Part shown: positions 5,388 through 28,493 of the stretch, one piece after another
How positions within the stretch are numbered: the first letter of the stretch is position 1
How the letters are laid out: each line of letters starts with the position of its first letter
NCBI GenBank assembly: GCA_963827475.1
Contig: CAWHAZ010000004.1
Coordinates: 32,001 to 96,000, forward strand
Reading direction: 5' to 3'
Source: an uncultured Chloroflexia bacterium
GTDB taxonomy: Bacteria > Chloroflexota > Limnocylindria > QHBO01
Length of the DNA: 64,000 nt
Position numbers and translations under genes: made by a program
Notes under the pieces: model-generated
The model's database searches: none
Told to the model about the DNA's origin: nothing
Seen by the model: only the letters and a program-made list of their open reading frames with translations

Positions 5388-5390
5388 CGG

Positions 5391-6482
5391 TCAGGCCACC
5401 TCCAGCTCAGCCCGGTCCTCGAAGGCCCGCAGGCCGAGGAGGACCACGCGGTGGCGGCGTTCCGGGTCGGAGATCTCGAGCGCGGTCCGCAGAAACTGCC
5501 CGCGCACGGTCGCCTCCTCGGCGATGGCCGCCAGGTCGTACCCGACCATGACGCGGTCGCGGCGGATGACGAGCCCATCGAGGTGGCCGCCGAGGGCGGC
5601 GAGATCCGCGCCGTCGACCCGGACCACGGGCGCGACCGTCCCGGTGAGGGTCACCCGGACTGAGCCCCGCAGGCCGCCGACCACGGCGTTGACCCGGTCC
5701 CGTACGTCGTCCGCGTGCTCGCAGCCGTCGAGCGCGACCTCGACGTCGTGGACCTGGCTGACGGCGACCACGCGTCGCTCGCGTTGCACGAGGCCGTCCG
5801 GCCCGACTGTGGCGAGGACCGCTGCCCGCTCACCGGTCTCGCCAAACTCGAGCGGATCCGGGTTGCCCGGGTAGGTGTGGCGCTCCGCGTCCTTCGGCAG
5901 GTGGAAGTGTCCGAGGAACGCGTGGGCGAAGCCGGCGGCCTCGATCTCCGCCGCGTCGAAGGGGGCGTGGGGCTGCTTCCCGCTCTCCTGGGCCGTCAAC
6001 CAGCTCCGTTCCGAGGCGTGGGCAAGGGCGATGTGGACTCCGCCGCCGACGGCGCGGGCGGAACCGAAGAAGTCGTCGGTGTTGGCCGGCGCGCGGTGGG
6101 CCGCCCCCCACAGGGTTACCCCATCGGTGAGGGGGACCGGTACCAGCTGCGCATCGGTGAACACGTGGACGTTCGGGCTCCAGTGGGTCACCGCGTACGG
6201 GCTCTGGGGTCCGTACCAGTCATGGTTGCCCGGCGCGAGGAAGATCGGTCTGCTGCTCCGGGCGAAGCTGGACTGCAGGAAGGCGACGGTGTCCGGCTGG
6301 ACGCGGTCGTGCTCGAACAGGTCGCCGGCGCACAGGATCGCATCCACCTGCTCGGCTTCGGCCAGGGCCAGGATGCGGGCCAGGGTGTCGCGCCGATGCT
6401 GCCGCCGTCGGTGAGCGGCCTCCGGCTCGAGCCAGGCGAACGGGGCGTCGAGATGGAGGTCCGCGAAGTGCAGCAGCTTCAT
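5391..6482 (-). CDS. Mre11/SbcD-like DNA repair exonuclease (YhaO type)
   Basis: Metallophosphoesterase motifs ADLHLD, AGDLFE, PGNHD, LGHFH, YPGNP; directly upstream of the Rad50-like gene. Confidence 0.92.
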   Translation of the reverse strand: MKLLHFADLHLDAPFAWLEPEAAHRRRQHRRDTLARILALAEAEQVDAILCAGDLFEHDRVQPDTVAFLQSSFARSSRPIFLAPGNHDWYGPQSPYAVTHWSPNVHVFTDAQLVPVPLTDGVTLWGAAHRAPANTDDFFGSARAVGGGVHIALAHASERSWLTAQESGKQPHAPFDAAEIEAAGFAHAFLGHFHLPKDAERHTYPGNPDPLEFGETGERAAVLATVGPDGLVQRERRVVAVSQVHDVEVALDGCEHADDVRDRVNAVVGGLRGSVRVTLTGTVAPVVRVDGADLAALGGHLDGLVIRRDRVMVGYDLAAIAEEATVRGQFLRTALEISDPERRHRVVLLGLRAFEDRAELEVA

Positions 6483-6528
6483 CGGTGGCAAGGATACGGT
6501 CCGCGGCGTGACAGCTCGGGCGTCGCGG

Positions 6529-6684
6529 CTACGCCTCCTGGGCGCGGCGCAGCTCGACGGCGAGCAGGACGACGGCGACGGCGAGCAGCAGATGGACGAT
6601 CGGACCGATCTCCACCAGCAGCCCGAGCAGCCAGCCGACCACGCACAGACCGATCCCGATCCACGCCAGCGAGATCCCGTTCAT
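6529..6684 (-). CDS. Small two-TM membrane protein (51 aa, lmo0937-like)
   Basis: MNGISLAWIGIGLCVVGWLLGLLVEIGPIVHLLLAVAVVLLAVELRRAQEA; ATGA overlap with the upstream mini-ORF. Confidence 0.6.
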   Translation of the reverse strand: MNGISLAWIGIGLCVVGWLLGLLVEIGPIVHLLLAVAVVLLAVELRRAQEA

Positions 6685-6785: not shown

Positions 6786-7248
6786 CCGGCGAGGACCTCG
6801 ACCAGCTGCCCCAGGTGCTCGACGGGTTTGACCCGTGCGAAGGACGTGCTCGACGCGACCGTCCGGACCAATGACGAAGGACGTCCGCTCGACCCCGTGG
6901 TACGTCCGCCCCATGTACGTCTTCTCGACCCACGTGCCGTAGGCGTCCGCGACCTTATGGCCCTCGTCGGACAGGAGGCGATGCTTCAGGCCGTACTTGT
7001 CGCGGAACTTCACGTGGCTCTTGACACTGTCCGGCGAGACGCCGAACATCTCCGCATCGAGGGCCTCCGCCACCGACCAGTTGTCGCGCAGGGAGCAGGC
7101 CTGCGCCGTGCAGCCCGGCGTGTCGTCCTTGGGGTAGAAGTACAGGACGTACCGCTGGCCCGGCGAGGCTCTCGGAGGTGACGAGCGATCCATCGTCGGC
7201 TTGCATGGCGAAATCGGGGGCCTTGGTGCCCACCTCCGGGTAGCTCAC
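6782..7248 (-). CDS. bcp: Peroxiredoxin Bcp/PrxQ (two apparent frameshifts)
   Basis: VGTKAPDF..VLYFYPKDDTPGCTAQAC..GVSPD..ERTSFVIGPDG; frame changes near 7160 and 6840. Confidence 0.88.
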
Positions 7249-7260
7249 GGCCGGGCCATC

Positions 7261-8271
7261 CTATCGCAGGCCGATCGAGAGCAGGACCGTGGGCAGCCGG
7301 CGCGGCTGGAGGCGCGCGGCGAGGTCGGCCGCGACCTCCGCGAGCAGATCCGGCGTCGCCTCGCCGAGGTCGTGTCCGGCGCCCGGGACGAGGATGCGTC
7401 GCGGGGCGGCGGTCGCGGCCAGGGCGGCGGCGAGCAGCGTGGACTCGTCCGGGTGGACCCACCCGTCCAGCTCGCCGTGCACGAGGGTGACCGATCGGCG
7501 CTGGAGGGTGGCCAGGGCCCGGGTCGGGATCCGCATCGCCTGTTCCCAGCCGGCCAGGCCGAGCGTGGCGTGGCGGCCGCCGGCCATGGTCAGGGTCATC
7601 TCCGTCTCGCCCCTCTCGGCGCGCTCGATGAGCTCCTCCAGGCCACGATCGAGGGCGACCACGAATGGGTGGGACGGCTCGGGGTTGACTCCGTTCGGAT
7701 GTCGCCCCCGTTCGGCGGCGGCCCGGCGGAGGACGTCTCGGAGGCCGCGGGCCGGGGCGCCGATCAGGGTCAGGGGACCGACCCCCGGGTCCGCCGCCGC
7801 CACGCTGAGCGCGAGCCACGCGCCCTCGCCGTGGCCGACCAGCCCGATGCGGGTCGGGTCGACGGCCTCGTGCCCGCGCAGGGCGGAGAGCGCGTCGCGC
7901 GCGTCGTCGACGAGGGTGAAGAGGCCCGCCGTCGACCACTCCCCGCCGGAGCGGCCGCAGCCGCGCTTGTCGAACCGGAGGCTGGCCACGCCGTGGTCGG
8001 CCAGCGCCGTGGCGAGGCGGCCGAGCAGACCGCCCGCGGACTCCGGCTCGGGGGCGAACCAGCCGTCGTGCCGGCCCTGGTCGAGCCGGCCGTCTCGATC
8101 GCGGGGGAGGAGGCTGGGCAGGAGGAGCACGGCCGGCCAGCGCTGGTCCGGGCTCGCGGCTGCCTCATCGGCTCGTCGATCGGTCGCCTCGTCGGTCGCA
8201 TCGGGGCGGGTCAGGGTCCCGGCGAGGACGACCTGGCCGGCGGTGATGGACAGCTCTTCGTCACGGGCCAT
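7261..8271 (-). CDS. Alpha/beta hydrolase-fold protein with GHGEG in place of the nucleophile motif GHSEG
   Basis: LAGTLTRP, LRFDKRGCGRS, RIGLVGHGEG, VHGELDGWV, GAGHD. Confidence 0.8.
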   Translation of the reverse strand: MARDEELSITAGQVVLAGTLTRPDATDEATDRRADEAAASPDQRWPAVLLLPSLLPRDRDGRLDQGRHDGWFAPEPESAGGLLGRLATALADHGVASLRFDKRGCGRSGGEWSTAGLFTLVDDARDALSALRGHEAVDPTRIGLVGHGEGAWLALSVAAADPGVGPLTLIGAPARGLRDVLRRAAAERGRHPNGVNPEPSHPFVVALDRGLEELIERAERGETEMTLTMAGGRHATLGLAGWEQAMRIPTRALATLQRRSVTLVHGELDGWVHPDESTLLAAALAATAAPRRILVPGAGHDLGEATPDLLAEVAADLAARLQPRRLPTVLLSIGLR

Positions 8272-8292
8272 GGCCCGGCCATCATCCTCCAC

Positions 8293-9079
8293 TCAACCGA
8301 AGATGAAGGCCCAGCTCCCTACCGCGACGCTGACCGCGACCGCGACCACGCCCAGGACGCCCGCGGCGAGGAGCAGCAGCCAATCGGCGCGTCGCATCCG
8401 GGGTGGCCGGGCCAGGGTGCGAGGCGTTCCGCTGTCGAAGCCACGGGCGTCCATCGCCATCGCCAGCCGGCCGGCGCGGCGGATGGTCGACACCAGCAGG
8501 ATGACCACCGCCGTGAGCGCCAGTCGAGCGGCGACGAGCGGATTGCGGCCCGCGTCCACTCCTCGGGCCCGTCGCGCCATCCCGATCGATTGCCATTCGA
8601 TCCCCAGGACCGGCACCAGGCGAAGGGTCGCCAGCGCGCCGACCGCCAGCCGGGCAGGCACGTGGAGGTGACCGATGAGCCCTGACGCCAGGTCAGCAGG
8701 ATCGGTCGTTGCCAGGGCGAGGATCCCGGCCAGGGCGATCGCCGCCACCCGGAGGCCGAGGGCCAGCCCAAGGGCGACCCGATCCACGGCCGTGTCGGTG
8801 GGAAGGACGGCGGACGTCCCGGACAGCAGCGCGTTCACGCGTCCCGAGCACGGTGGCCACGACGACCACCGGGAGCAGGAGCCGGCCCACGGCGGCCGGT
8901 CGGAGGCCGGTCCCGGCCAGGGCGATGCCCTCGCCCGCGAGCAGGATGGCCGGCGTGACCGGGTCGCGGGACGCGAAGGCGACCGCCATCACGATCACCG
9001 CCGCGCCGAGCTTGGCGACGGGATCGGCGGCGGGCAGGAAGGCCGCCGGGTTGGCGAGGGCCGGCGCGCGGAGGTGCAT
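8293..9079 (-). CDS. ECF transporter transmembrane (T) component (frameshift near 8840)
   Basis: DPVAKL N-terminus; ARRARG and AMDARGF coupling-helix motifs. Confidence 0.88.
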
Positions 9080-10560: not shown

Positions 10561-11126
10561 ACGGCCGGCTCCGCGACGTCGCGGCCGGACGGGAAGGCGG
10601 CCAGCACGCCCGTCGGGCGGAGGAGCCGGACGAGGTACCACGATCCGACCCCGGCAACGAGCGCGCCGCTGAGGAGCATGAAGGCCCCGTAGGCGAGCTG
10701 GATCGTCAGCGCGACGCCCACGAAATAGACCGTCATGTCGTGGAACCACATCCCGACGGCAGCGCCGCAGCCGGCGAGAACGGCCATCGGCAACGTCCAG
10801 CGGCGGTAGAGGGCCAGGGCGAAGACGAGCTCCGCGCCGGCTCCCTGGACGAGGCCGGAGAAGATGGTGTCGAGCCCGTACGGCGAGCCGAGCAGGAGCG
10901 AGACCACCGCGGCCATCGTTTCCGCCAGGAGCGCGGCACCGGGGAGGCGGACGATGAGCGGCGCCAGGACGGCCGGGATGAGCCACACCCCGGACAGGAG
11001 GTAGAGCGGTGGGGCAAATGTCCCGGCGGCGACGGCGTTGAAGACGAGGTTCCAGCCGGTGAACACCACCCCGAACGCGACGCCGAGCGCGGCGGTGACC
11101 ACGATGTCGACGGTCCGCCACCTCAT
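10557..11126 (-). CDS. ECF transporter S component, YkoE-like (thiamine/HMP)
   Basis: MRWRTVDIVV..GVWLIPAVLAPLIVRLPGAALLAE..GLVQGAGAELVF..YRRW; lies under a TPP riboswitch. Confidence 0.88.
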   Translation of the reverse strand: MRWRTVDIVVTAALGVAFGVVFTGWNLVFNAVAAGTFAPPLYLLSGVWLIPAVLAPLIVRLPGAALLAETMAAVVSLLLGSPYGLDTIFSGLVQGAGAELVFALALYRRWTLPMAVLAGCGAAVGMWFHDMTVYFVGVALTIQLAYGAFMLLSGALVAGVGSWYLVRLLRPTGVLAAFPSGRDVAEPAV

Positions 11127-11779
11127 GACCTGTCCTCCTCGCGGCCCGAGTCGATCTCGATGACGAGCAGCCGGCCGCCGGTGATGGTGACCGTCGCCGG
11201 CGCCTCGAGGATGACGTTGGCCAGGCCGCGGGACGATCCGGGTTCCAGGCGATCGTTCGCGAGCGGCCATCGCATGCCAGTCGTGGTCACCCCTTCGGCG
11301 GGCACGCCGACGGCCAGGAGGCTGACCCGGGAGCCGGAGGGCGCCCTGATCTCGACGCGGCCGGGCCCGGACAGCATGCGGGCGGTCGTGCGGTCGTGCA
11401 CCAGGCTCGTCGCTCCGGCCGTCGCCAGCTCGGAGCACAGCAACAGCAGGTTCGCGGCCAGGTGGTCGAGCTCACCGCCCAGGGCACCGAGGATCACCAC
11501 CTCGTCGGCACCGGCGGCTGCCGCAGTGCCCAGGCTGAGCTCCAGGTCGGAGGCATCCTTGTCGGTCGGGTGCCGCTCCACCAGGGCGCCGGCGTCGGCC
11601 ATTCGCTGGACGGTGCCGGGGCTGGCCGAGTCGAGGTCGCCCACGATGCGATGGGGAGACACGCCAACCGTGGCCAGCCAGTCCGCTCCGCCGTCGGCTG
11701 CGATCACCAGGTCCGCGCCGGCAAGCACGCGCCGATCCGCCGGCGCGTGCGATCCATCGGCGACGATCACTGCCTTCAC
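11123..11779 (-). CDS. thiN: Thiamine diphosphokinase
   Basis: IAADGGA, VGDLDS, DKDASDLE, LGALGG..DH, RGLAN motifs. Confidence 0.92.
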   Translation of the reverse strand: MKAVIVADGSHAPADRRVLAGADLVIAADGGADWLATVGVSPHRIVGDLDSASPGTVQRMADAGALVERHPTDKDASDLELSLGTAAAAGADEVVILGALGGELDHLAANLLLLCSELATAGATSLVHDRTTARMLSGPGRVEIRAPSGSRVSLLAVGVPAEGVTTTGMRWPLANDRLEPGSSRGLANVILEAPATVTITGGRLLVIEIDSGREEDRS

Positions 11780-11783
11780 GATT

Positions 11784-11872
11784 CGACTCCCTACGCTGGC
11801 ATGATCCAGGTCAGGTTCGAGGGTCTGCGGTCTGGTGCCGCACTCTCAGCGCCGAGGCGCTCCCCTGTCGTG
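11784..11872 (-). ncRNA. TPP riboswitch (aptamer 3' end contains the SD of thiN)
   Basis: Minus strand: ACGACAGGGGAGCGCC..GCTGAGAGT..GACCCTCGAACCTGACCTGGATCATGCCAGCGTAGGGAGTCG, which matches the THI-box hallmarks. Confidence 0.95.
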
Positions 11873-11915
11873 GTCCTGTCGGTCGCAGCCTAGCACTCCA
11901 CGTACCATCGATCGC

Positions 11916-13395: not shown

Positions 13396-14399
13396 GGCCG
13401 ACACCCCCGACCGTCCCCCAGCCAGCAGGCAGTGGGACCGACGCGGGTCAGACGGCTGCCGGTCGTGTCGACGACATCCGTGGAACCCGGGTCGAAGAGC
13501 AGCAGGAGTGAGGCGTCGGGCGAGAAGCGGGCGAGCGACCCGGCGCCGATCCTGGCTGGCGAGGCGACGCTGTCGAGCGCCGCGAGCCAGGTCACCCCGG
13601 CCTCCGGCCACGCGAGCCATCGCCCGTCCGGGCTGACTTCCACGGCCGCGGCCCGCGGGAGGGCAGTGATTTCCTTCTCGGTGCCGTCGGTCCCAACCTG
13701 GATCAGCGCCACCCCGCCTCCAACCTGGTGGCGGACGAGCACGATCGATCCGTCATCGAGAGCGGTCGCTCCGTAGACCAGCTGGCCCTCGGCCGCAACC
13801 GTCCCCACCGGGGCGATGTCGCCGGTCGCCGGCTCGACGATCTCGGCCGCGGCCCAGATCGGGGCGTCGACCGAGGACAGCCGGACGGCGAGGATCCGCC
13901 CATCGGGGAGGATGGTGGGATCGGGGCCGAAGGGCCCGGGTGCCACCTGAGTGGCCGAGCCGCTGACGGCGTCGACCTGCCACAGGGCTCCGGACAGGTC
14001 CACGACCGCCAGCCAGGCGCCGCCGGGTTCGAATGCCGCTCCCCGGACTCCGGGCACGGAGACCTCGAGCTGCGACCCGTCCTCCCGGGCGAGGGTCATC
14101 GGACCCGGCTGGCCGAGCTCGACGGTGGAGACGGCCACCGTTTCGCCGTCCGGCGACGCGGCCAGCGGCCGGACGATCGACCGCTCATCGCGCGAGCGAG
14201 GCTCGACCAGATCCTCGCCGTCGACCGCGCGCACGGTGAGGGAGAGCGCGCCTCCGCTGTCGCGCAGCGCGGCGGCATTGCGCAGGGTGACCGGCGGCGG
14301 CGGACCGGCACGGACCTGCGGCGAAGAGAGAACGACGACGAGAGCCAGACCGAGCGCGATGGCGCCGGCGGCAAGGAACAGCAAGACGCGGGTAGGCAC
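13392..14399 (-). CDS. Exported beta-propeller-like hypothetical protein
   Basis: N-terminal TM/signal; repeated SPDG-like turns (ASPDGET, FEPGGAW, LPDGRI, VSPDGRW, FSPDAS). Confidence 0.7.
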   Translation of the reverse strand: MPTRVLLFLAAGAIALGLALVVVLSSPQVRAGPPPPVTLRNAAALRDSGGALSLTVRAVDGEDLVEPRSRDERSIVRPLAASPDGETVAVSTVELGQPGPMTLAREDGSQLEVSVPGVRGAAFEPGGAWLAVVDLSGALWQVDAVSGSATQVAPGPFGPDPTILPDGRILAVRLSSVDAPIWAAAEIVEPATGDIAPVGTVAAEGQLVYGATALDDGSIVLVRHQVGGGVALIQVGTDGTEKEITALPRAAAVEVSPDGRWLAWPEAGVTWLAALDSVASPARIGAGSLARFSPDASLLLLFDPGSTDVVDTTGSRLTRVGPTACWLGDGRGCRP

Positions 14400-14534
14400 C
14401 TCAAACCTCCGAACGGAAGGGGATGGAAGGCGGAATCGGCGGTCGAGGGCGGCTGCGGGATCCTCGGAGCGGTTTCGGACGCGGCCAGCCTGCCAGGCCC
14501 CGCTTACCGCGGACGTATCGCATACTCACCGGCC

Positions 14535-15292
14535 GTGGACGACGCCGCGATCCCCGTGCTGCTGGTCGCGCTCGGGATGCTCGCGATCGCGGGCCGGCGC
14601 CGCGCTCGTCCGCTGGAGCGGAGCCGACACCCGCGCCGGACGCCGGCTGGCCGGTGCCCGGCCCGCCTCCCTCCACGACCTCCATGCGGCCGCCGCTCGC
14701 GGCGAGCTGCCGGCGCACGAGGTCCGCGTCGAAGGGCGGGTGCGCTGCGCGGATCCCATTCGGACGCCGGACGGCGAGCGGCTGGCCCTCCTCCACCGCG
14801 ACATCGAGGTCCAGCAACCCGACGGGCGGTGGCGCACGATCGAGCGCCTCCGCGATGCCCGGACGATCGACCTCTGGGAGCGCTCGACATCGGTCCCGCT
14901 CGACCTGGGCCGGCTGGCAGAGCCGCTGATCACCATTCCGCACCGGTGGGAGGGCTCGCCGTCGGAGCTCGACGCGACCCACCAACCGGCTGTCGCGCGC
15001 GTCGGCTCCGAGGATCAGCCGCCGAAGCGGGCCCGGGCCATCACCCGCCAGGTGATGCTGGTCGACCAGCTCATCGTGCTTGCCGTCCCGAGCCGCGACA
15101 CCGGATGGGGCGGTACGACTCGATCCCCCACCAGGGGGCTTCCTGGTGGCCACCGTGGAGCTGGACGTGGCGCTTCGCCTGCTGGCCGGCCCCCACCGGC
15201 GGCGGATGATCGCCGGCTACGCCGTGGTCGGAGCAGGCCTCGTCCCGCTGGTCATCGGCGTCGTGGCCCTGGGGCTCGCACTCCTCGCCTGA
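14535..15292 (+). CDS. Membrane protein with N- and C-terminal TM segments flanking a GIDE-like beta domain (two frameshifts)
   Basis: Reassembled from three frames: VDDAAIPVLLVALG.. / ..EVRVEGRVRCADPIRTPDGERLALLHRDIEV..WRTI.. / ..GGFLVAT..MIAGYAVVGAGLVPLVIG. Confidence 0.55.
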
Positions 15293-15441
15293 CGGGCCCT
15301 GGACAGGCTCCACGCCCCCCATTCGGCGAGCGGGTTGGTACGAACGGGGCATGGAGCCGCCGACTTGCCGTTTCTAGCATGGGCTGCACGCCGCCTACCA
15401 GATCCTCCATTCATCACCTGGAGGCGGACCCAGGGGAACCA

Positions 15442-18273
15442 ATGGCCTCATCGTCCACAAGCGGATCACGACCGGACGCGCTCATCAGCGTGGCCCAGGC
15501 CGCTGCCCTGCTCGGGGTGCACCCCAACACGGTGCGGTCCTGGACCGAAAGCGGGCGCCTCGCCGCGTGGCGGATCAATCCACGGGGCGATCGACGCTAC
15601 CGGCGCGCGGACGTGGAACGGCTCCTGGCCGAGGGCGCGTCGACGCCGACCGAGGCCTCGGACGCGTCGCCTGCCGGGGCGACCCGACAGCCGGAGGTGG
15701 ATGCGGAGGCCGCGGTCCTGACCCGCATCTCGCAGGGCACGGTGGACGCCGGCAGCGTGGCCGCCGTCTGCCGGGTGACGGTCGAATCGCTGCGCACGGT
15801 CGAGGCCATCGCCCGCGTGGCGGTCTATCTGGTTCGCGACGACCGGCTGGTGCTCGAGACCCATGCGGGGCACAGCACGCCGCCGCCGCCCACCCTGTCG
15901 TGGAGCAGTGAGGGAGACGAATTCGGCGCGGATGGCAGCATCCGCCTGCCGCTGACCATCGGCCAGGAGCGGATCGGGGTCCTGCTTGCTGCCGACGACG
16001 TGGACGGGGCATGGGTCCGCAGCCGCCGCCGCTTCCTGATCGCCGCTGCCGCGACCGCCGGCGTCGCCCTGCGCCACGCGCGGGCCATCGCCCGGGCCCG
16101 CCGCGAGCTGACGCGCGCCCGCGCCCTGGCCAGCGTGACCCGTGAGCTCACCGGGCAGCTCGAGCTGGGCGCCGTGCTGAGCGACATCGCGGACCGGACG
16201 CGGGGCCTGTTCGACGCCGACCGGGTCGGCCTGTGGATGATCAACGACGAGCGGGAGCACCCCTTCGACCTGGCCGCCGAGCGCGGGATCAGCCCCGCCT
16301 TCCAGGCCATGATCAGCCAGCTCACCTTCACCAGCCCGTCGCTCGGGACGCAGGCCGTCCGCGAGCGCCGCACGTTCGTGGCCCGCCACGCGGACACCGA
16401 TCCGGCCGTCGGCGTCCTGCAGGACCTCTACCGCGACGAGGGCGTGAAGACCGCCTGCCTGGTCCCGCTCGTCAGCCATGACAAGGCGGTCGGGGTCATC
16501 GGCCTGTACCACGCCCGGGATCGGGAATGGCCCGACGACGAGCTGGCCCTCGCCCAGGCCTTCGCCAACCAGGCCGCGGTCGCGATCAGCAACGCTCGCC
16601 TGTACCGCGCCACGGCCGAGCAGGCGGCCCGCATGCGGTCCATTCACGACCTCTCGGCGCGCCTGAACCGGCTCACCGATGTGCAGGCCATCGCGGACGC
16701 GATCGTGGCCGAGGCGAGCACGCTGGCCGCGTTCCACGACATCCGGATCTACACCGTGGACTGGGAGCGGGGCACGTGCGAGCCAATCGCCTTCACCGAC
16801 CGGCTGCTGGGGGATGGGGACTTCCGAGACCTGCTGCGGGTCGACATCGGTCCGGGCTCGTTTACCGGCTGGGTGGCCGCCAACGCGCAGCCGATCCTGA
16901 GCAACGACGCGATGAACGACGAACGTGGCCTCACGATCGAAGGCACCGAGGAGATCGAGGAGTCGATGCTGGTCGTGCCGATGGTCTACGAGGGTCGGTC
17001 GGTGGGCGTCATCGCGCTCTCCAAGCTGGGCGTGAACCAGTTCTCGACCGATGACCAGCAGACGATGATGATCTTTGCCGGCTACGCGGCCCAGGCCCTG
17101 GTCAACGCCCGCAGCTATCGGCGACTGGAGGAACAGTCCAGCCAGCTGGCGCGGCAGCTCGACAGCCAGCGACGGCTGCTCGACGTGAGCACCCGGGTCA
17201 TGGGCACGCTCGAGCAGGAGGACATCCTCGAGGTCGTGGCCGACGGGCTGAAGGCGGTCGTCCACTACGACAACCTGTCGATCTACCGGGCGGACGCCGC
17301 CAAGCAGGTCCTGGTCCCGGTCCTCACCCGCGAGGAGCACGCGGCCGAGGTCGCCCGCTACATCATTCCGTTCGGCCGCGGCCTGATGGGATGGGTCGTC
17401 GAGCACGGCGAGGCGGTGCTGGCCAACGACGCGCTGGCGGATCCCCGCGCCCTGCAGATCCCCGGCACGCCGGAAGACCAGGAGGCGCTCATCGTCGTCC
17501 CGCTGATCAGCGACGGCCAGGTCACCGGGTCCATGAACGTCAGCCGGGTCGGCGGCGAGGACGTGTACTTCAGCGAGACCGATTTCGAGCTGGTCCAGCT
17601 GTTCGCCGCCCAGGCGGCGGTCGCCCTCCGCAACGCGGACGAGCACCACGCCATGAGCCTGCGGGCAGAGACCGATGCGCTGACCGGGCTCAGCAACCAC
17701 GGCGCCTTCCAGCGCGACCTGGCCGAGGCCATCGAGGCGATCGCCGCGGCGCCGTCGGAGGAGGGCCAGCTCGGCCTGCTGATGATGGACCTCGACCGAT
17801 TCAAGACCTACAACGACCGATTCGGCCACCCGGCCGGTGACGCGCTGCTCCACGCGGTGGGCGAAGCGCTGTACGCGGCCACCCGCAGCGACGACCGGGT
17901 CTACCGCTACGGCGGTGACGAGTTCACCGTGGTGCTGTCCGGGGTCGACCTTCCGGCTGCCCGACGGGTGGCCGAACGCGCCCGTCGGCTGGTTGCCGCC
18001 GTCTCCCTGGAGCGCGGCGCCGCCCCGGTCACGATCACCATCGGCGTCGCCCTCCTCCCCGATCACGGGGAGGGCAAGGACGCGCTGATCGGCGCGGCCG
18101 ATGCCGCCCTGTACGGCGGCAAGCAGGCGGGTGGCGACCAGGTGGTGGTTCCGGGTGAGGCCCCGCGGCCGCAGAGCCGCAAGGCGGCGAAGCCGCGCCG
18201 CGACCCGGACGCCGTCATCGAGCAGCGACGGCGGCGCAGCGACCCGGATCGGACGAGGACGACCGCGGCCTGA
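15442..18273 (+). CDS. Diguanylate cyclase with N-terminal MerR/excisionase-type HTH and about four GAF domains
   Basis: ISVAQAAALLGVHPNTVRSW..GDRRY; GAF repeats (CLVPL, LVVPM, IVVPL); TDALTGL, DLDRFKTYND..GHPAGD, RSDD I-site, GGDEF. Confidence 0.92.
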   Translation: MASSSTSGSRPDALISVAQAAALLGVHPNTVRSWTESGRLAAWRINPRGDRRYRRADVERLLAEGASTPTEASDASPAGATRQPEVDAEAAVLTRISQGTVDAGSVAAVCRVTVESLRTVEAIARVAVYLVRDDRLVLETHAGHSTPPPPTLSWSSEGDEFGADGSIRLPLTIGQERIGVLLAADDVDGAWVRSRRRFLIAAAATAGVALRHARAIARARRELTRARALASVTRELTGQLELGAVLSDIADRTRGLFDADRVGLWMINDEREHPFDLAAERGISPAFQAMISQLTFTSPSLGTQAVRERRTFVARHADTDPAVGVLQDLYRDEGVKTACLVPLVSHDKAVGVIGLYHARDREWPDDELALAQAFANQAAVAISNARLYRATAEQAARMRSIHDLSARLNRLTDVQAIADAIVAEASTLAAFHDIRIYTVDWERGTCEPIAFTDRLLGDGDFRDLLRVDIGPGSFTGWVAANAQPILSNDAMNDERGLTIEGTEEIEESMLVVPMVYEGRSVGVIALSKLGVNQFSTDDQQTMMIFAGYAAQALVNARSYRRLEEQSSQLARQLDSQRRLLDVSTRVMGTLEQEDILEVVADGLKAVVHYDNLSIYRADAAKQVLVPVLTREEHAAEVARYIIPFGRGLMGWVVEHGEAVLANDALADPRALQIPGTPEDQEALIVVPLISDGQVTGSMNVSRVGGEDVYFSETDFELVQLFAAQAAVALRNADEHHAMSLRAETDALTGLSNHGAFQRDLAEAIEAIAAAPSEEGQLGLLMMDLDRFKTYNDRFGHPAGDALLHAVGEALYAATRSDDRVYRYGGDEFTVVLSGVDLPAARRVAERARRLVAAVSLERGAAPVTITIGVALLPDHGEGKDALIGAADAALYGGKQAGGDQVVVPGEAPRPQSRKAAKPRRDPDAVIEQRRRRSDPDRTRTTAA

Positions 18274-18320: not shown

Positions 18321-19066
18321 ATGCGTGACCGACGCCGCGATCCGCTGCGCGCTGCGCCGCGGACCGTCCTCCGGCGGCGCGGCACGTGGCTGACCCTCCT
18401 CCTCATGATGGCGGTGGCGGCCTGCACCGGATCTCCGACCCCCACGCCCTCGCCCAGTGCCTCCGGGCTGCCGACACCCACGCCCTCGCCGACCCCGCTG
18501 CCCAGCCCGCGCTTCTCGAACGAGGCCGACGCCGCTCTGTCGGGATCTCATCCCCGACCAGGCGAACGGCCTGACGGTCGTCAAGCCGGCGCTCACCGAG
18601 TACGCGATCACACCCGGTGACATCGGTCAGGCGGCGTACGGCGAGCTCGGCGCCCGCTTCCAGACGCTGGTCGTCGCCTTCGTCCGCGACCCGCGCCTGA
18701 GCCTGTACGCGATGCGGGTCGATGGCGACGCGGTGACCAACGCCGACCTCGAGCCGCACCTCGCCACGGCTGGCCGGTACGTCGGCATCGCCGGACTGGT
18801 GCGGGAGCCGTGGGAGCTGACCGCGGTGGGCGGCCACGAGGTCTGGGTCCGGCCGTCGGACGGCGCCACACTGGCCGGCACCCGGGTCTACACCTGGGCC
18901 ACGGACGACCTCGTATTCCTCATGATCGGCGTCAACGACGAGCTGAACCAGGCCCTGCTCGCCCTCCTGCCCGGCGAGCCGCCGCCAACGCCCAGCCCGG
19001 CGCCGTCCATCCAGCCCCGACCCGAGCGCCACCGAGGAGCCATCGGCCACTCCCAGCGACTCCTAG
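18321..19066 (+). CDS. Hypothetical lipoprotein with Pro/Thr/Ser-rich linkers (frameshifts near 18540 and 19015)
   Basis: Lipobox-like AVAAC, PTPSP repeats, globular core in ORF 18457..19098. Confidence 0.6.
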
Positions 19067-19075
19067 ACTGCGCGA

Positions 19076-20149
19076 ATGACCGACCCCGTGACCGATGACG
19101 AGGAAGTCCCCCACGAGGACGGCTTCGACGAGGACGGCTTCGACGATCTGAGCTTCGACGAGCCTGCTGCCTCCGGCCGCAAGCGCGACCGGCTGGCTCG
19201 CCTGCTATCGGTCATCACCATCCTCTACAGCCGTGGCAGCGGAGAGCAGGGCGTCGCCGTCGATGACATCGCCAGCCTGACCGGGATGAACAAGCGAACG
19301 GTCTACCGCGACCTGAAGGCACTCGAGGACGAGCTGGCGGTCCCGATCTTCCAGGCCGGCCGCGGACGATACGGGATCGAAAAGAAGTACTTCCTGCCGC
19401 CGCTCCAGCTCACCGTGCCCGAAGGGGTCGTCCTGTTCCTCGCGTCACGCCTCATCGCCCAGTGGTCGGACGAGTCGGACCAGGCGGTCATCAGCGCCTT
19501 CACCAAGATCGCGGCCGAGCTGCCCCAGCCCATCGCCCGCCACGTGACGGCGACCATGCTGGCCGTGGGCGAGCTGGACTCGAACGAGCCGTTCACCGCG
19601 ACCTTCAACACCGTCGCTCGCGGCTGGGCCGAGGGGCGGGTGGTCGAGGTCATCTACGCACCAAGCGCCGGTGAATCCCGGAGGACCCGGATCCGGCCGT
19701 ACCTGCTCGAGCCGTCCGCTGCCGGACGGAGCATCTACGTCATCGGCTACGACGAAACCGCCGACGCGATGCGGACCTACAAGATCGAGCGCATCCAGCA
19801 GGCGATCCTGACCGTCGACCGATACGAGATCCCCGACGAATTCCAGCCCGACCAGTTCCTCGCCAACTCGTGGGGCATCTGGTCGTCCGACACGACCGCG
19901 CCGGTCGACGTCCGCCTGCGCTTCGACGCCGGAGTCGCGCGGCGCGTCCACGAAACGATCTGGCACCGGTCGCAGGTCCTGACCGACCTGCCCGACGGAC
20001 GCGTCGACCTGGCGGTGCGCGTGGCGGGGATCGTCGAGATCCGGCCCTGGATCCTGTCGTGGGGAGACCAGGTGGAGGTCCTCGAGCCGCCCGAGCTGCG
20101 GGACGTGGTCGCCACCGCTCTCCGGGGAGCGGCCGGCCGCTACGCCTGA
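19076..20149 (+). CDS. HTH-WYL-WCX transcriptional regulator (PafB/PafC/DriD-like)
   Basis: RLARLLSVI..RTVYRDLKALE HTH; RRTRIRPYLL..IYVIGYD..RTYKIERI WYL domain; WILSWGDQVEVLEPPELR WCX domain. Confidence 0.93.
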   Translation: MTDPVTDDEEVPHEDGFDEDGFDDLSFDEPAASGRKRDRLARLLSVITILYSRGSGEQGVAVDDIASLTGMNKRTVYRDLKALEDELAVPIFQAGRGRYGIEKKYFLPPLQLTVPEGVVLFLASRLIAQWSDESDQAVISAFTKIAAELPQPIARHVTATMLAVGELDSNEPFTATFNTVARGWAEGRVVEVIYAPSAGESRRTRIRPYLLEPSAAGRSIYVIGYDETADAMRTYKIERIQQAILTVDRYEIPDEFQPDQFLANSWGIWSSDTTAPVDVRLRFDAGVARRVHETIWHRSQVLTDLPDGRVDLAVRVAGIVEIRPWILSWGDQVEVLEPPELRDVVATALRGAAGRYA

Positions 20150-20844
20150 GGTTCGCCCAGCGGAAGTCGGAGCAGGAGAGCCAGGGTCGGACGTGCGCGC
20201 GGCTCGGCCGGCGTCACCGGCATCCGCAGCCACGCGTCGCCGGCCACCCCGGCCCGGTGGCGCGCCGACAGACGCCGGGCGGAGAGTCCCTCGATCCCGA
20301 GACGGGACAGGGCCTCGGCCACCAGCGTTCCATCCCCGACGTAGCCATGGCCGACCGTGATCCGATCCCCGGGAGCCAGGATCCGTCCCAGCCAGTCCCG
20401 TCGGATCCGGAAGGTGCGCTTCAGGACAGATTCCCCACCGGCCCACAGCAGGTCGGCGGCGACGTACGCCGCTCGACCGGCGCCGCGCTCGGATCCGCTC
20501 AGCCGGGCCCGCAGCAGATCCGCGTCCGGCCGGCCCTCCGGATCGAGGACGAGCAGCGTCCCGTCGAGCGCCACCCCGTCCTCCGCCAGCTGGCCCGGCA
20601 GCTCACGCAGCTCGGGGAACGCGGTGTCGGCATCCGCCAGGCCGGCGACCTGGAGCCGGACTCGACCGCGTTCGGCGAGGGCGGTGGCCCGGACCCCCGG
20701 CCACCAGGGCTCGAACAGGTAGTCCGGATCGTCGAACGGCGCGGGCGCGTCGGCCGGCTGCATGGGGGCAATCCGTTCCGGCAGCCGGTAACCGGGAGCG
20801 TCCGCCTCCGGATAGGCGGGCAGTGGAAGCTGTTCGGGCGGCAC
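20140..20844 (-). CDS. LigD-like ATP-dependent ligase adenylation domain, no OB domain, catalytic Lys absent
   Basis: IAPMQP, FEPWWPGVR (canonical EPKWDGxR), AFPEL, LDGTLLVLD..GRP, YVAADLLW, IEGLSARR, WLRMP (canonical WLKIK). Confidence 0.8.
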   Translation of the reverse strand: MPPEQLPLPAYPEADAPGYRLPERIAPMQPADAPAPFDDPDYLFEPWWPGVRATALAERGRVRLQVAGLADADTAFPELRELPGQLAEDGVALDGTLLVLDPEGRPDADLLRARLSGSERGAGRAAYVAADLLWAGGESVLKRTFRIRRDWLGRILAPGDRITVGHGYVGDGTLVAEALSRLGIEGLSARRLSARHRAGVAGDAWLRMPVTPAEPRARPTLALLLRLPLGEPQA

Positions 20845-20852
20845 GCCGCCGG

Positions 20853-21767
20853 TCAGGCGGTCTTTCGCCGCCTGGTCTGGGGAGCCTCGTCAGCCTCGGC
20901 CGATTTCTTCGCTCGGCTCCGCCGCGCGGGCGTCGGCTTGGCGGCGGCCTTCTCTCCGGCGTCCGCTCCCGCCGCCGCGTCGCGGCGGGCCTCGCGGGCA
21001 GCGGCCACGCTGGCCTCCAGGGCGGCCATCAGGTCGCCGATCTTGGTCGGCTCGGTGGCCGCGATCGGCGTCGGCTCCTCGCCGGAGACCTTGGCCTCGA
21101 TGACGCCCATCAGCGCCTGGCGGTACTCGTCCCGGAACTCCTCGGCACTGAACTCGCTGGTCATGGATGCGATGAGCTGCTCGGCCATCTTCCGCTCCGA
21201 GGCCTTGATCTCGATCCCGCTGCTGTCGACCGCCAGCTCCTCGATGGGCCGGATCTCGTCCGGCCAGTGGAGGGTGGTCATGAGCATCGACTCGGCATAC
21301 GGGTTGATGGCCGCCAGCTGCTCGCGATCCTTCATGACGACCTTGCAGATCGCGCTCTTGCCCTCGTCGGCGAGGACCTGGCGGAGGAGGAAGAAGGCCT
21401 TCTTGCCGACGGGGTCGGGCTCGAGGTAGTAGGCGCTCTTCACGAACGCTGCGCCGTGGTCTTCCTTGTCGGCGGCCACGAACATCGCGATCTCGATGGA
21501 GCGGACCGTCTTGAGCGGCACCGCCTCGAGGTCCTCATCGGTCACGACCACGTATCGGCCCTTGCTCCATTCGTAGCCGCGGACCGTCTCGGAGCGCGGG
21601 ACGACCTCGTCGTGGAACGGGCAGTAGATCTTCATCTGGATCCGGTTCAGGCAGCTGGCGTGCAGCATGTTGAAGCCGATTCCGCTCGACTCGGTCGCGA
21701 GGTAGAGCTTGACGGGGATCGTCACCAGCCCGAACTGGATCGCCCCCCGCCACATCGCGCGTGCCAT
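20853..21767 (-). CDS. ku: Non-homologous end-joining protein Ku
   Basis: MARAMWRGAIQFGLVTIPVKLY..GYE..YYLEP..LHWPDEIR..DEYR..DLMAALEASV, basic C-terminal tail. Confidence 0.96.
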   Translation of the reverse strand: MARAMWRGAIQFGLVTIPVKLYLATESSGIGFNMLHASCLNRIQMKIYCPFHDEVVPRSETVRGYEWSKGRYVVVTDEDLEAVPLKTVRSIEIAMFVAADKEDHGAAFVKSAYYLEPDPVGKKAFFLLRQVLADEGKSAICKVVMKDREQLAAINPYAESMLMTTLHWPDEIRPIEELAVDSSGIEIKASERKMAEQLIASMTSEFSAEEFRDEYRQALMGVIEAKVSGEEPTPIAATEPTKIGDLMAALEASVAAAREARRDAAAGADAGEKAAAKPTPARRSRAKKSAEADEAPQTRRRKTA

Positions 21768-21830
21768 AGGGCCGTCGAGGATACACCCGGTCCGCCACCG
21801 CGGCGATCGGTCGCCCCGGCCGATTCCGGG

Positions 21831-22432
21831 CTAGGACTCGACCTCGGGCGGGAGCCAGCTGCGGGCTTCGTCTTCGGGGATGAGGTCCTCGAGGGCCGAG
21901 CCGGGCCCGGCGTCATCGGCGACCACCAGCATCTCCGCCACCTTGCGCTGGACCGCGAGTACAGGGGCGTTGCGGTTGAAGCCCGGGAACGCCGCGGATG
22001 CCACGGCCACGTCGGTCAGGGCCAGGAACGGATCGGCCACGTTCAGGACGTCGGTCGCCTGGCTGCCGAAGGGAACGTGGACGGTGCCCGACAGCCAGAA
22101 GGGGTGCAGCGCGACGTCGATCCGGACCGGGCGCTTCTGGACGACCAGATCCGGGTTCGCGCTGTCGTCGACACCAGTGCTGATCCCGAACAGGACCGCT
22201 TCCACGGCGACCATGACCGTGCTCCCGCTGTGGGTCGCTGCCGCGGTCTCGCCGAATACTCGACGACGGTGGCCTGCTCGACGTTGAGGTGGGTCGACCC
22301 GCTCAGGTTGAGGATGTCGGCGACGCGCCGAAAGCGGGTCGCCATCTCGCCCCGCACCCGGTAGCCGGGGGTGTACAGCTCGACCTGCACCCGGCTGATC
22401 TGCGGACCGAAGGCATCAGGGTCCCATCCCAT
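21831..22432 (-). CDS. Hypothetical protein with two similar beta-rich repeats (DUF6812-like; frameshift near 22250)
   Basis: Repeat 1 VELYTPGYRVRGEM..RRVADILN..HLNVEQATV; repeat 2 IDVALHPFWLSGTVHV..ATDVLN..FLALTDVAV. Confidence 0.6.
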
Positions 22433-22441
22433 CGGCCGATC

Positions 22442-23219
22442 CTAGCGCTTGCGCGCCTTCCAGACCTCTTCGCTCGGCCACCGGCGTGCCCAGTCGATGG
22501 TGGCGATGTTCTCCCACGTCGTGGTCGAGCCCTCCGGCGGCTGGATCTCCATGAGGTCCGTGACCTCGAACCCAGTCCGGGTGAGAAGTCGAAACATGTC
22601 GCTGTGCGACAGGTGGAACTCCACCGCGTTCGGGTCGTCCGGCCATTCGAACCGATGCATGCCGAACTGGGGACGCCTCAGGCGCTCCCCGGCCGGTCCC
22701 TCGGCCTCGGTGTCGGGGACGGCGAGCATGACGAGCACGCTGTTGGCGAGAAAGATCAGCTCGCCGCCGGGTCGGAGCAGCCGCCATGCTTCGGGGATCC
22801 ACTGGTAGGGATCGGCCCAGATGGCGGCGCCGTACTCGGAGATCGCCACGTCGAAGCTCTCGTCGGGCAGCGGGACGCGCTCCGCATAGCCGAGCATCAG
22901 GGGGAACGCGAGTCCGTGCTCCTGCTGAAGCCGTCGAGCCGTTTCGAGCTGTCGGGGAGAGTTGTCCAGTCCGGTGACGCGCGCACCGCGTCGTGCCATC
23001 CAGGCCGACACGTAGGCCGTCCCGCACCCGAGCTCGATGACGTCCTTCCCGTCGAGATCCTCCGGCAGCAGATGCACCTGCGATTCGGGCACGCTCCAGA
23101 TGCCCCATCTCGGCTCAGCGGCGGCCCACGCTCGCTCACCGGGCGCGACGTGCTCCTCGGCCGCTATGTCCCAACCGATGCGGTTGCGGCGGACGTGGTC
23201 CGGCAGGTCATTCGGTCAC
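22442..23219 (-). CDS. Class I SAM-dependent methyltransferase
   Basis: VIELGCGTAY, GLDNS, AERVPLPDESFD, RLLRPGG; frame stays open to about 23215, start GTG 23219 needs one indel. Confidence 0.9.
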
Positions 23220-28416: not shown

Positions 28417-28493
28417 GCCCCCATCGTCTAGAGGCCTAGGACGCCACCCTTTCAAGGTGGAGATCACCGGTTCGAATCCGGTTGGGGGCGCCA
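28417..28493 (+). tRNA. tRNA-Glu (TTC)
   Basis: GCCCCCA acceptor stem, CCACC-CTTTCAA-GGTGG anticodon arm, GGTTCGAATCC T arm, encoded CCA. Confidence 0.97.

Follow-up and report, generated by a model that had tools for sequence, protein, structure and literature searches.

What is the function of a DNA ligase domain that is kept next to ku and that appears to lack the residues with which ligases are adenylated? The question is raised by a 64,000-nucleotide (nt) stretch of DNA, hereafter the window, from an uncultured Chloroflexia bacterium (assembly GCA_963827475.1, contig CAWHAZ010000004.1, positions 32,001 to 96,000), in which ku is followed by a short ligase-like gene that we have called pLig. 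An initial annotation of the window had viewed the pLig product as a pseudo-ligase that could serve as a Ku adaptor, end-bridging factor or inhibitor during non-homologous end joining (NHEJ) while another ligase seals the break. This adaptor idea has been partly supported and is the best available reading. We give a probability of about 0.55 to the proposal that pLig is a non-catalytic, Ku-coupled accessory protein in NHEJ, descended from the nucleotidyltransferase (NTase) subdomain of a LigD-type NHEJ ligase and kept in Candidatus Limnocylindria. Since pLig has lost the residues for DNA joining, it is probably a non-enzymatic helper in break repair. The features of the locus are the following.

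20140-20844, minus strand: pLig, the ligase-like gene (234 residues, GTG start), with a LigD-type NTase domain
20853-21767, minus strand: ku (304 residues), matched by TIGR02772, PF02735 and PDB 8v53 (E value of 1.8e-46)
21778-21797, minus strand: ku promoter-like element, TGGCGG, 8 nt, TATCCT
19076-20149, plus strand: HTH-WYL-WCX gene, convergent with pLig
25583 to ~27346, minus strand: LigB-type ATP-dependent DNA ligase (start codon approximate), same strand as ku
21831-22432, minus strand: two-copy DUF6812 gene, located upstream of ku and interrupted by a 2-nt insertion near 22251

The ku stop codon and the pLig GTG are separated by 8 nt (20845-20852), with the pLig start as the ninth base, and the 3' ends of pLig and the WYL gene share 10 nt (20140-20149). 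The LigB stop lies 3816 nt from the ku start, and the G+C content of the window is 68-75%. LigB is intact, with KYDGIR, DGELIPF, EGLMVKD and WLKLKK and all three Pfam ligase domains (DNA-binding, NTase, OB). This layout agrees with the initial annotation, which had placed pLig 9 nt downstream of ku, a WYL gene over its 3' end by 10 nt and an intact LigB about 3.8 kb away.

The comparison with Pfam and NCBIfam profiles revealed that pLig matches ligase families through their NTase half alone, under every curated cut-off. PF01068 covered residues 40-207 with 20.7 bits (cut-off of 26.2), TIGR02779 scored 67.9 bits against 227.75 and was matched at profile positions 3-182 of 302, TIGR02776 reached 46.7 against 373.2, and the match to NF007210 spanned profile positions 473-657 of 781. 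No PF04679 (OB) match was obtained with Pfam in pLig, which ends 25 residues past motif V. A minimal ligase comprises an NTase and an OB domain, as described in an excerpt of PMC7470946, and an OB-fold gene was absent from the operon, the window and 80 related loci (see below), LigB's own excepted. In the window and the 80 loci, the stretches to which this result is limited, there was likewise no phosphoesterase or polymerase part of LigD, nor a separate gene for either. A Chloroflexota LigD (P0271) matched the window via its residues 244-465 alone (in pLig and LigB), so that the 64 kb lack a phosphoesterase or polymerase part. The earlier description of pLig as a LigD-type adenylation domain without OB, polymerase and phosphoesterase domains was thus borne out.

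The best relatives of pLig in the PDB were the Mycobacterium tuberculosis LigD entries 6nhx, 6nhz and 1vs0 (E values from 3.6e-15 to 6.9e-15). We have read the motifs from the alignment of pLig to 1vs0 (E value of 6.9e-15) and from a table of representative sequences, and have numbered them according to what we take to be the usual nomenclature.

Motif I: EGKWDGYR in LigD, EPWWPGVR in pLig, with Lys replaced by Trp (W47) and Asp by Pro (P49)
Motif III: LDGEAVV in LigD, LDGTLLV in pLig, with Glu replaced by Thr (T96)
Motif IIIa: FWAFDLL in LigD, YVAADLL in pLig
Motif IV: EGVIAKR in LigD, EGLSARR in pLig, with Lys replaced by Arg (R190)
Motif V: WVK in 1vs0, WLR in pLig; canonical WLKxK, WLRMP in pLig (R207 and P209)

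The altered motif I and the later lysine losses in EGLSARR and WLRMP had already been noticed in the initial annotation; the replacement of the motif III Glu is an additional loss that it had not listed. Judged from these alignments, pLig is without the adenylation residues and is thus probably a pseudo-ligase. A structure model built from 117 diverse sequences had a mean predicted local distance difference test (pLDDT) score of 90.3, and replaced an earlier model from 25 close homologues with a pLDDT of 41.4. Residues ~20-210 were modeled with confidence, and residues 1-20 and 211-234 scored between 59 and 70. Foldseek matched the model to ligase NTase domains, including those of archaeal ligases and M. 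tuberculosis LigD, with a TMq of 0.66-0.72 and E values from 3.7e-14 to 1e-10. For the LigD ligase domain (1VS0, 6NHX, 6NHZ) the TMq was 0.66-0.68 at 27-29% identity. The predicted structure shows that pLig has the ligase NTase (adenylation) fold, and both of its tails are probably flexible (20764-20844 on the minus strand for the N-terminal and 20143-20181 on the minus strand for the C-terminal one).

The substitutions were found to be a constant character of a protein family. Of 8000 candidates scored in a word-indexed search, 836 proteins had E ≤ 1e-3, and the top 120 of these were 67-96% identical to pLig and 201-239 residues long. Among these 120 and the query, W47 was present in 119 of 121 sequences, W48, P49, G50 and R52 in all 121, R190 and R207 again in 121/121 and P209 in 116/121. 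T96, in the place of the motif III Glu, showed no variation in 25 of 25 sequences. When 1.84 billion cluster representatives were searched exhaustively with HMMER, 4644 matched at E ≤ 1e-3, and in the best 150 the motif I region read EPWWP in 33, carried the canonical Lys in 73, had another residue in 32 and was missing in 12. The 33 EPWWP proteins ranged from 88 to 323 residues and down to ~46% identity, with no longer forms among them. P46, W47, P49 and S188 were invariant in the 13 full-length EPWWPG representatives, while the corresponding motif I sites of canonical ligases held Lys in 72/72 and Asp in 70/72.

The ratio of nonsynonymous to synonymous substitutions (dN/dS, Nei-Gojobori) was 0.106 for pLig against the closest locus (dS of 0.63) and 0.106-0.404 across 30 loci. 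The median over the same 437 gene pairs was 0.239 for pLig and 0.320 for ku; these were the pairs, out of 465, with a pLig dS above 0.05 and with dS defined and below 1.2 in both genes. The strong bias in third-position G+C makes dS rough, and the ratio is still clearly below 1. As estimated from these coding sequences, pLig is under purifying selection. This bears out what the initial annotation had asked of close homologs: the lysine loss is conserved, none of the close relatives keeps EPKWDG, and neutral evolution is excluded by dN/dS. Its argument that several substitutions are unlikely to be one sequencing error also held, since they recur in 119-121 of 121 homologues.

To place the family among ligases, a tree was calculated from 122 NTase cores with IQ-TREE (fast mode), which is shallow evidence. 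The 18 EPWWPG sequences formed a clade with an SH-aLRT (Shimodaira-Hasegawa-like approximate likelihood ratio test) support of 97.4, and a FastTree analysis agreed on this clade. The clade lay on the same side of a split of 31 sequences, none of them with the Lys (SH-aLRT of 89.5, IQ-TREE), the split being independent of rooting. The closest lysine-bearing proteins were Chloroflexota LigD with phosphoesterase, ligase and PrimPol domains at 42-43% identity, one of them named Candidatus Limnocylindrales. These three-domain proteins (P0156/P0271, ~950 residues) keep EPKWDGYR and the OB domain, and the trees group them with canonical ligases and not with pLig. Their presence in the same class complicates the interpretation given in the initial annotation: with a three-domain LigD known in Limnocylindria, pLig would be an added factor and not necessarily the sole ligase relative.

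Other LigD/LigC-like proteins without the motif I Lys accounted for 32 of the 150 best representatives (P0142, P0155, P0157, P0163-P0168, P0175, P0196 and others), many of them with an OB domain. Of these metagenome proteins, P0155, P0157, P0175 and P0196 fell on the same side of the 31-sequence split as pLig, and P0196 shares with it a C-terminal LALIQRLPL tail. The lysine-less proteins differ from pLig in that many keep the OB domain and are 330-400 residues long, and in motif I sequences such as SVNWDG, EVLWDG and EPRWGG. Since some lysine-less members of the split keep OB, the OB fold may have been lost after the lysine, and pLig may represent one branch among a larger set of pseudo-ligases. 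None of these relatives reached any NCBIfam cut-off, and no Pfam or NCBIfam family captures them. JGI pipelines call the lysine-less proteins of the pLig family "bifunctional non-homologous end joining protein LigD" and NCBI calls them hypothetical; the enzyme name is misleading. The 32 further lysine-less relatives in the best 150 suggest that pseudo-ligases may be commoner than recognised. In the portions of the literature that were consulted, including parts of PMC8656161, PMC7470946, bioRxiv 10.1101/869602 and PMC13212565, there was no account of a lysine-less Ku-linked ligase domain; the supplementary tables of bioRxiv 10.1101/869602, which give LIG-domain architectures per genome, might include such genes.

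We have then analyzed the association with ku in a single scan of species-representative genomes, in which 256 stretches encoded a relative and the best 80 were kept. The scan patterns included FEPWWPG, so that the W state in these 80 loci is partly by construction. The loci were assigned to Candidatus Limnocylindria or Chloroflexota, save 6 of 80 with other phylum labels: L002, L018, L040, L043, L047 and L077, labeled Pleomorphomonadaceae, Methylomirabilota, Zixiibacteriota, Steroidobacteraceae, Dormiibacterota and Binatia. These six share a Limnocylindria-type neighbourhood and are therefore probably mis-binned contigs. The named matches of a distant family member were likewise all Limnocylindria, Limnocylindrales or Chloroflexota.

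The ku product belongs fully to the bacterial Ku family, with 268.3 bits for TIGR02772 (cut-off of 150) and 142.6 bits for PF02735. It carries a conserved EPTxIGDLMAALEASV region, and its C-terminus ends in RRRKTA. A ku gene adjoined pLig on the same strand in 73 of the 75 loci with enough flank, the other two being overlapping alignments of an adjacent ku, so that the synteny conservation anticipated for this pair was confirmed. The junction was also kept: in 66 of 74 loci a gap of 4-14 nt (8 nt in 33 loci) lay between the ku stop and the pLig start, GTG in 65 and ATG in one. The eight exceptions comprised six alignments falling short of the start and two loci with a shifted or truncated ku frame. 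Judged from this gene arrangement, pLig is probably the second gene of a ku operon. A candidate Ku-pLig fusion in L007 (an open reading frame [ORF] of 652 residues, 7065-9023) was rejected, as a 22-nt insertion shifts the frame of the Ku tail.

The remaining neighbours were conserved to different extents, with only the ku-pLig pair truly fixed. The WYL gene was convergent and within 3.1 kb in all 64 loci with at least 5 kb of flank, which supports the earlier view of it as a companion of the pair, and abutted pLig in the window's own subclade only. LigB, encoded on the same strand, was upstream of the pair in 54 of 55 loci, and DUF6812 was upstream in 40 of 55. The genes inserted in relatives encode OsmC, a response regulator, an O-antigen-ligase-like protein and CYTH; they were rejected as repair genes, with no polymerase or phosphoesterase domain among them. 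The CYTH gene immediately follows the WYL gene on its strand and separates it from pLig (L012, 6862-7575 on the minus strand; L017, 8650-9470 on the minus strand; ~50 other loci); the window and its closest relatives lack this CYTH gene. The WYL protein could belong with CYTH as much as with ku. A plus-strand ORF just after pLig in L017 and L020 was dismissed as a shadow of the CYTH gene on the other strand. A defence-system interpretation was also rejected: PADLOC matched the WYL protein and a generic methyltransferase only, and PHROGs matched Ku and the WYL protein only.

We have compared pLig with what is known of the Ku-ligase contact in M. tuberculosis, where the LigD gene is likewise ku-linked. 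There, D522, K579 and L580 in the ligase domain of LigD make contact with the C-terminus of Ku (part of PMC13717202), and the catalytic lysine of LigD is K481 (a passage of PMC8656161). With K481 as the anchor of a mapping made by hand, the three contact residues align with E88, D150 and W151 of pLig. E88, R148, R149, W151 and L152 were invariant in 25 of 25 pLig sequences. Thus, pLig keeps residues aligned with the Ku-contact surface of LigD, whereas it lacks the catalytic Lys, the motif III Glu and the OB, polymerase and phosphoesterase domains, and has Arg or Pro for Lys in motifs IV and V.

The two tails contain conserved peptides. In the sequences that include the N-terminus, Q5, L6 and L8 of an EQLxLP motif were found in 82 of 82 and P9 in 81 of 82, and the motif is located in a flexible-looking region (pLDDT of 64-68). 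The motif is similar to the clamp-binding hexapeptide, the consensus of which is Q-phi-x-L-x-L, with QLSLPL in Hda, according to an excerpt of bioRxiv 10.64898/2026.05.27.728225. At the other end, a nearly invariant RPTLALxLRLPL tail takes the place of the OB fold.

The region ahead of ku was inspected for promoter elements. A -10-like hexamer, TATCCT (21783-21778), ends 10 nt before the ku ATG. The pattern G[GT]TGTANNNT had one occurrence in the 64 kb, at 21778-21787 on the minus strand ahead of ku, and 73 occurrences in the 1.09 Mb of the loci, 69 of them just upstream of ku. In relatives this promoter-like element reads TTGnnn-N8-TAnnnT, the TTG keeping its distance from the -10 in 57-63 of 67 sites. 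A -35 element spaced as for sigma-70 was not found near ku, nor was a sigma-70-type promoter within 18800-22600. Promoters of PafBC (tGTCgg-N10-tAnnnT, the "-26 element") and of DriD are devoid of a -35 element and have their activator site at a constant spacing from the -10, as presented in sections of PMC8635444 and PMC13004042. The ku promoter likewise has a fixed upstream element and no -35, and the neighbouring gene encodes the WYL and WCX domains of these regulators and a putative helix-turn-helix (HTH) domain. However, the element departs from the PafBC consensus: compared with tGTCgg-N10-tAnnnT, the TTGnnn located 8 nt ahead of the -10 has another sequence and is shifted by 2 nt. The WYL regulator in the window is also a single protein, in contrast to the PafB/PafC pair.

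The WCX and WYL domains of this protein scored 70.7 (cut-off of 23.9) and 43.5 (cut-off of 21.8). Its putative N-terminal HTH gave sub-cut-off scores (HTH_11, 21.2 against 25; HTH_PafC, 22 against 32), and the PADLOC WYL models cover residues 39-341. The nearest solved structures were 8tp8/9pfq (E value of 1.5e-11), which we take to be DriD, and the PafB/PafC chains of 7p5x. We infer that the ku-pLig operon has a dedicated, -35-less promoter of its own, with the neighbouring WYL protein as a candidate regulator.

Together, these data are compatible with the following model. Ku and pLig would be co-produced from one operon, driven by the -35-less promoter and possibly controlled by the WYL protein. 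pLig would dock on the flexible C-terminal arm of Ku via the same NTase surface as M. tuberculosis LigD and act at DNA ends as a non-enzymatic accessory factor, with its probably flexible EQLxLP and RPTLALxLRLPL tails recruiting or positioning other proteins. The break would then be sealed by a catalytic ligase, be it the neighbouring LigB or a canonical LigD encoded at another site of the genome. A more elaborate version, which we regard as tentative and clearly less probable, is that NHEJ in Limnocylindria is a system of three or more parts in which pLig, docked on the Ku arm, uses its clamp-binding-like N-terminal peptide and its conserved C-terminal tail to tether Ku-held ends to the sliding clamp and/or a ligase of the replicative type (LigB) as a bacterial counterpart of XRCC4, XLF or PAXX, belongs to a larger, hitherto undescribed superclade of LigD/LigC-like proteins without the Lys and is expressed from a promoter of the WYL-activator type. 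XRCC4, XLF and PAXX are eukaryotic non-enzymatic NHEJ scaffolds that act with Ku and ligase; their likeness to pLig is a functional analogy, with no homology. Bacterial NHEJ has been described as a two-protein system of Ku and LigD (part of PMC12784962). A conserved, non-catalytic, ligase-derived third component, if true, would mean that bacteria also evolved accessory NHEJ scaffolds, and pLig would offer a simple system for roles of NTase domains other than catalysis. The pLig genes occur class-wide in soil and freshwater bacteria next to ku, and LIG-domain surveys would score their genomes as having a Ku-linked ligase that cannot ligate.

Several observations weigh against the proposed accessory role. 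The mapping of the Ku-contact surface comprises three residues from one pairwise alignment, and in one of them (K579, aligned with D150) the type of residue is not kept. At its sixth position EQLxLP has V, A, T or E and not the L of clamp-binding peptides, and proline-rich proteins readily give rise to motifs of this type. Over 48 loci, the pairwise distances of Ku and pLig disclosed no co-variation beyond shared phylogeny (partial r given LigB of 0.12, against 0.10 for Ku and WYL). The 80 kept loci were chosen with a pattern containing the W motif, and since all loci come from one class, common descent and not function may explain why gene order outside the ku-pLig pair is conserved. The partner of the WYL gene in most relatives is CYTH and not pLig, from which the WYL gene lies 0.6-3 kb away. 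The promoter motif was not found ahead of LigB, the WYL gene or DUF6812 in the window and the loci, so that no shared regulon is visible and control of ku-pLig by the WYL protein remains conjectural.

The same evidence has been weighed for other functions of pLig. It could act as a brake, occupying the place at which the ligase docks on the C-terminus of Ku, or the 5'-phosphate end, and thereby delaying or limiting ligation by LigD or LigB, for instance until the ends have been processed. A dead NTase domain that is co-expressed with Ku and retains the residues aligned with LigD's Ku-contact surface (as mapped from part of PMC13717202) would suit this role, the canonical LigD of the class would be a competitor to regulate, and the Arg that replaces Lys in motifs IV and V (121/121 each) keeps a positive charge near the DNA or phosphate site. 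The present evidence does not separate a brake from a helper; however, an inhibitor made in fixed ratio from the same operon as its target would be an unusual design, and the conserved tails of pLig suggest additional partners, so that we consider inhibition unlikely, though the nearest competitor of the accessory role. It is rather improbable that the altered pocket has become a sensor of a small molecule, or of the end of a DNA or RNA, that works independently of Ku, the ku linkage reflecting a shared regulon only. The invariance of W47, P49 and S188 in 13 of 13 divergent members speaks for a new conserved use of the pocket loop and not for mere loss; but many distant members (EPWWPGAP, EPWWPGTP, EPWWPGAA) no longer have the motif I Arg, a ribose contact in ligases, and the ku-pLig junction kept in 66 of 74 loci points to stoichiometric co-production.

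Residual enzymatic activity, whether ligation or nucleotide transfer with a non-canonical nucleophile or an OB domain supplied in trans, is very improbable. The NTase fold is intact and both the motif IV acidic residue (D/E185) and the motif IIIa aromatic residue (Y127) are kept, but the Lys and Asp of motif I, the Glu of motif III, the Lys of motif IV and both Lys of motif V are replaced, and apart from LigB's no OB-fold gene accompanies pLig in the operon, the window or the 80 loci. Two frameshifts relative to the closest relatives within 4 kb (near 18550 and 22251) would be in line with a decaying pseudogene or a sequencing artefact in the window. For pLig itself we give this explanation practically no weight: its ORF is intact, the same substitutions occur in 119-121 of 121 homologues, the EPWWPG clade has an SH-aLRT support of 97.4 and dN/dS is well below 1. 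The accessory role next to Ku thus remains the reading that we prefer.

The frameshift near 22251 concerns the gene preceding ku, which the initial annotation had called a tandem-repeat hypothetical. A repeat gene is indeed present there, but it corresponds to a two-copy DUF6812 gene that a 2-nt insertion has split. It is one ORF of ~200 residues in L001, L005, L009 and L002 and two overlapping ORFs in the window, the split being either a real frameshift or an assembly error. The break near 18550 affects a putative lipoprotein gene (18321-19098, plus strand), which is in one frame in L001 and in two in the window and which encodes a signal peptide with a lipobox-like AVAAC followed by a conserved domain. 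As there are thus two frameshifts within 4 kb, the window sequence may contain indel errors.

Other elements of the window were also recorded. Rfam and tRNA scans of the 18-28 kb region gave no match except a tRNA-Glu at 28417. A second set of DNA-end-processing genes, SbcC-like and SbcD-like (Metallophos), is located at 2889-6680 on the minus strand, ~14 kb from the ku locus. A very long ORF (13951-18273, plus strand) contains MerR/HTH_17, three GAF and GGDEF diguanylate cyclase domains, with its true start probably well inside the ORF. Finally, a TPP riboswitch (11771-11876, minus strand, 66.7 bits) overlaps a stop-to-stop ORF with a thiamin pyrophosphokinase domain (11123-11845) and thus sits upstream of the thiamin pyrophosphokinase gene.

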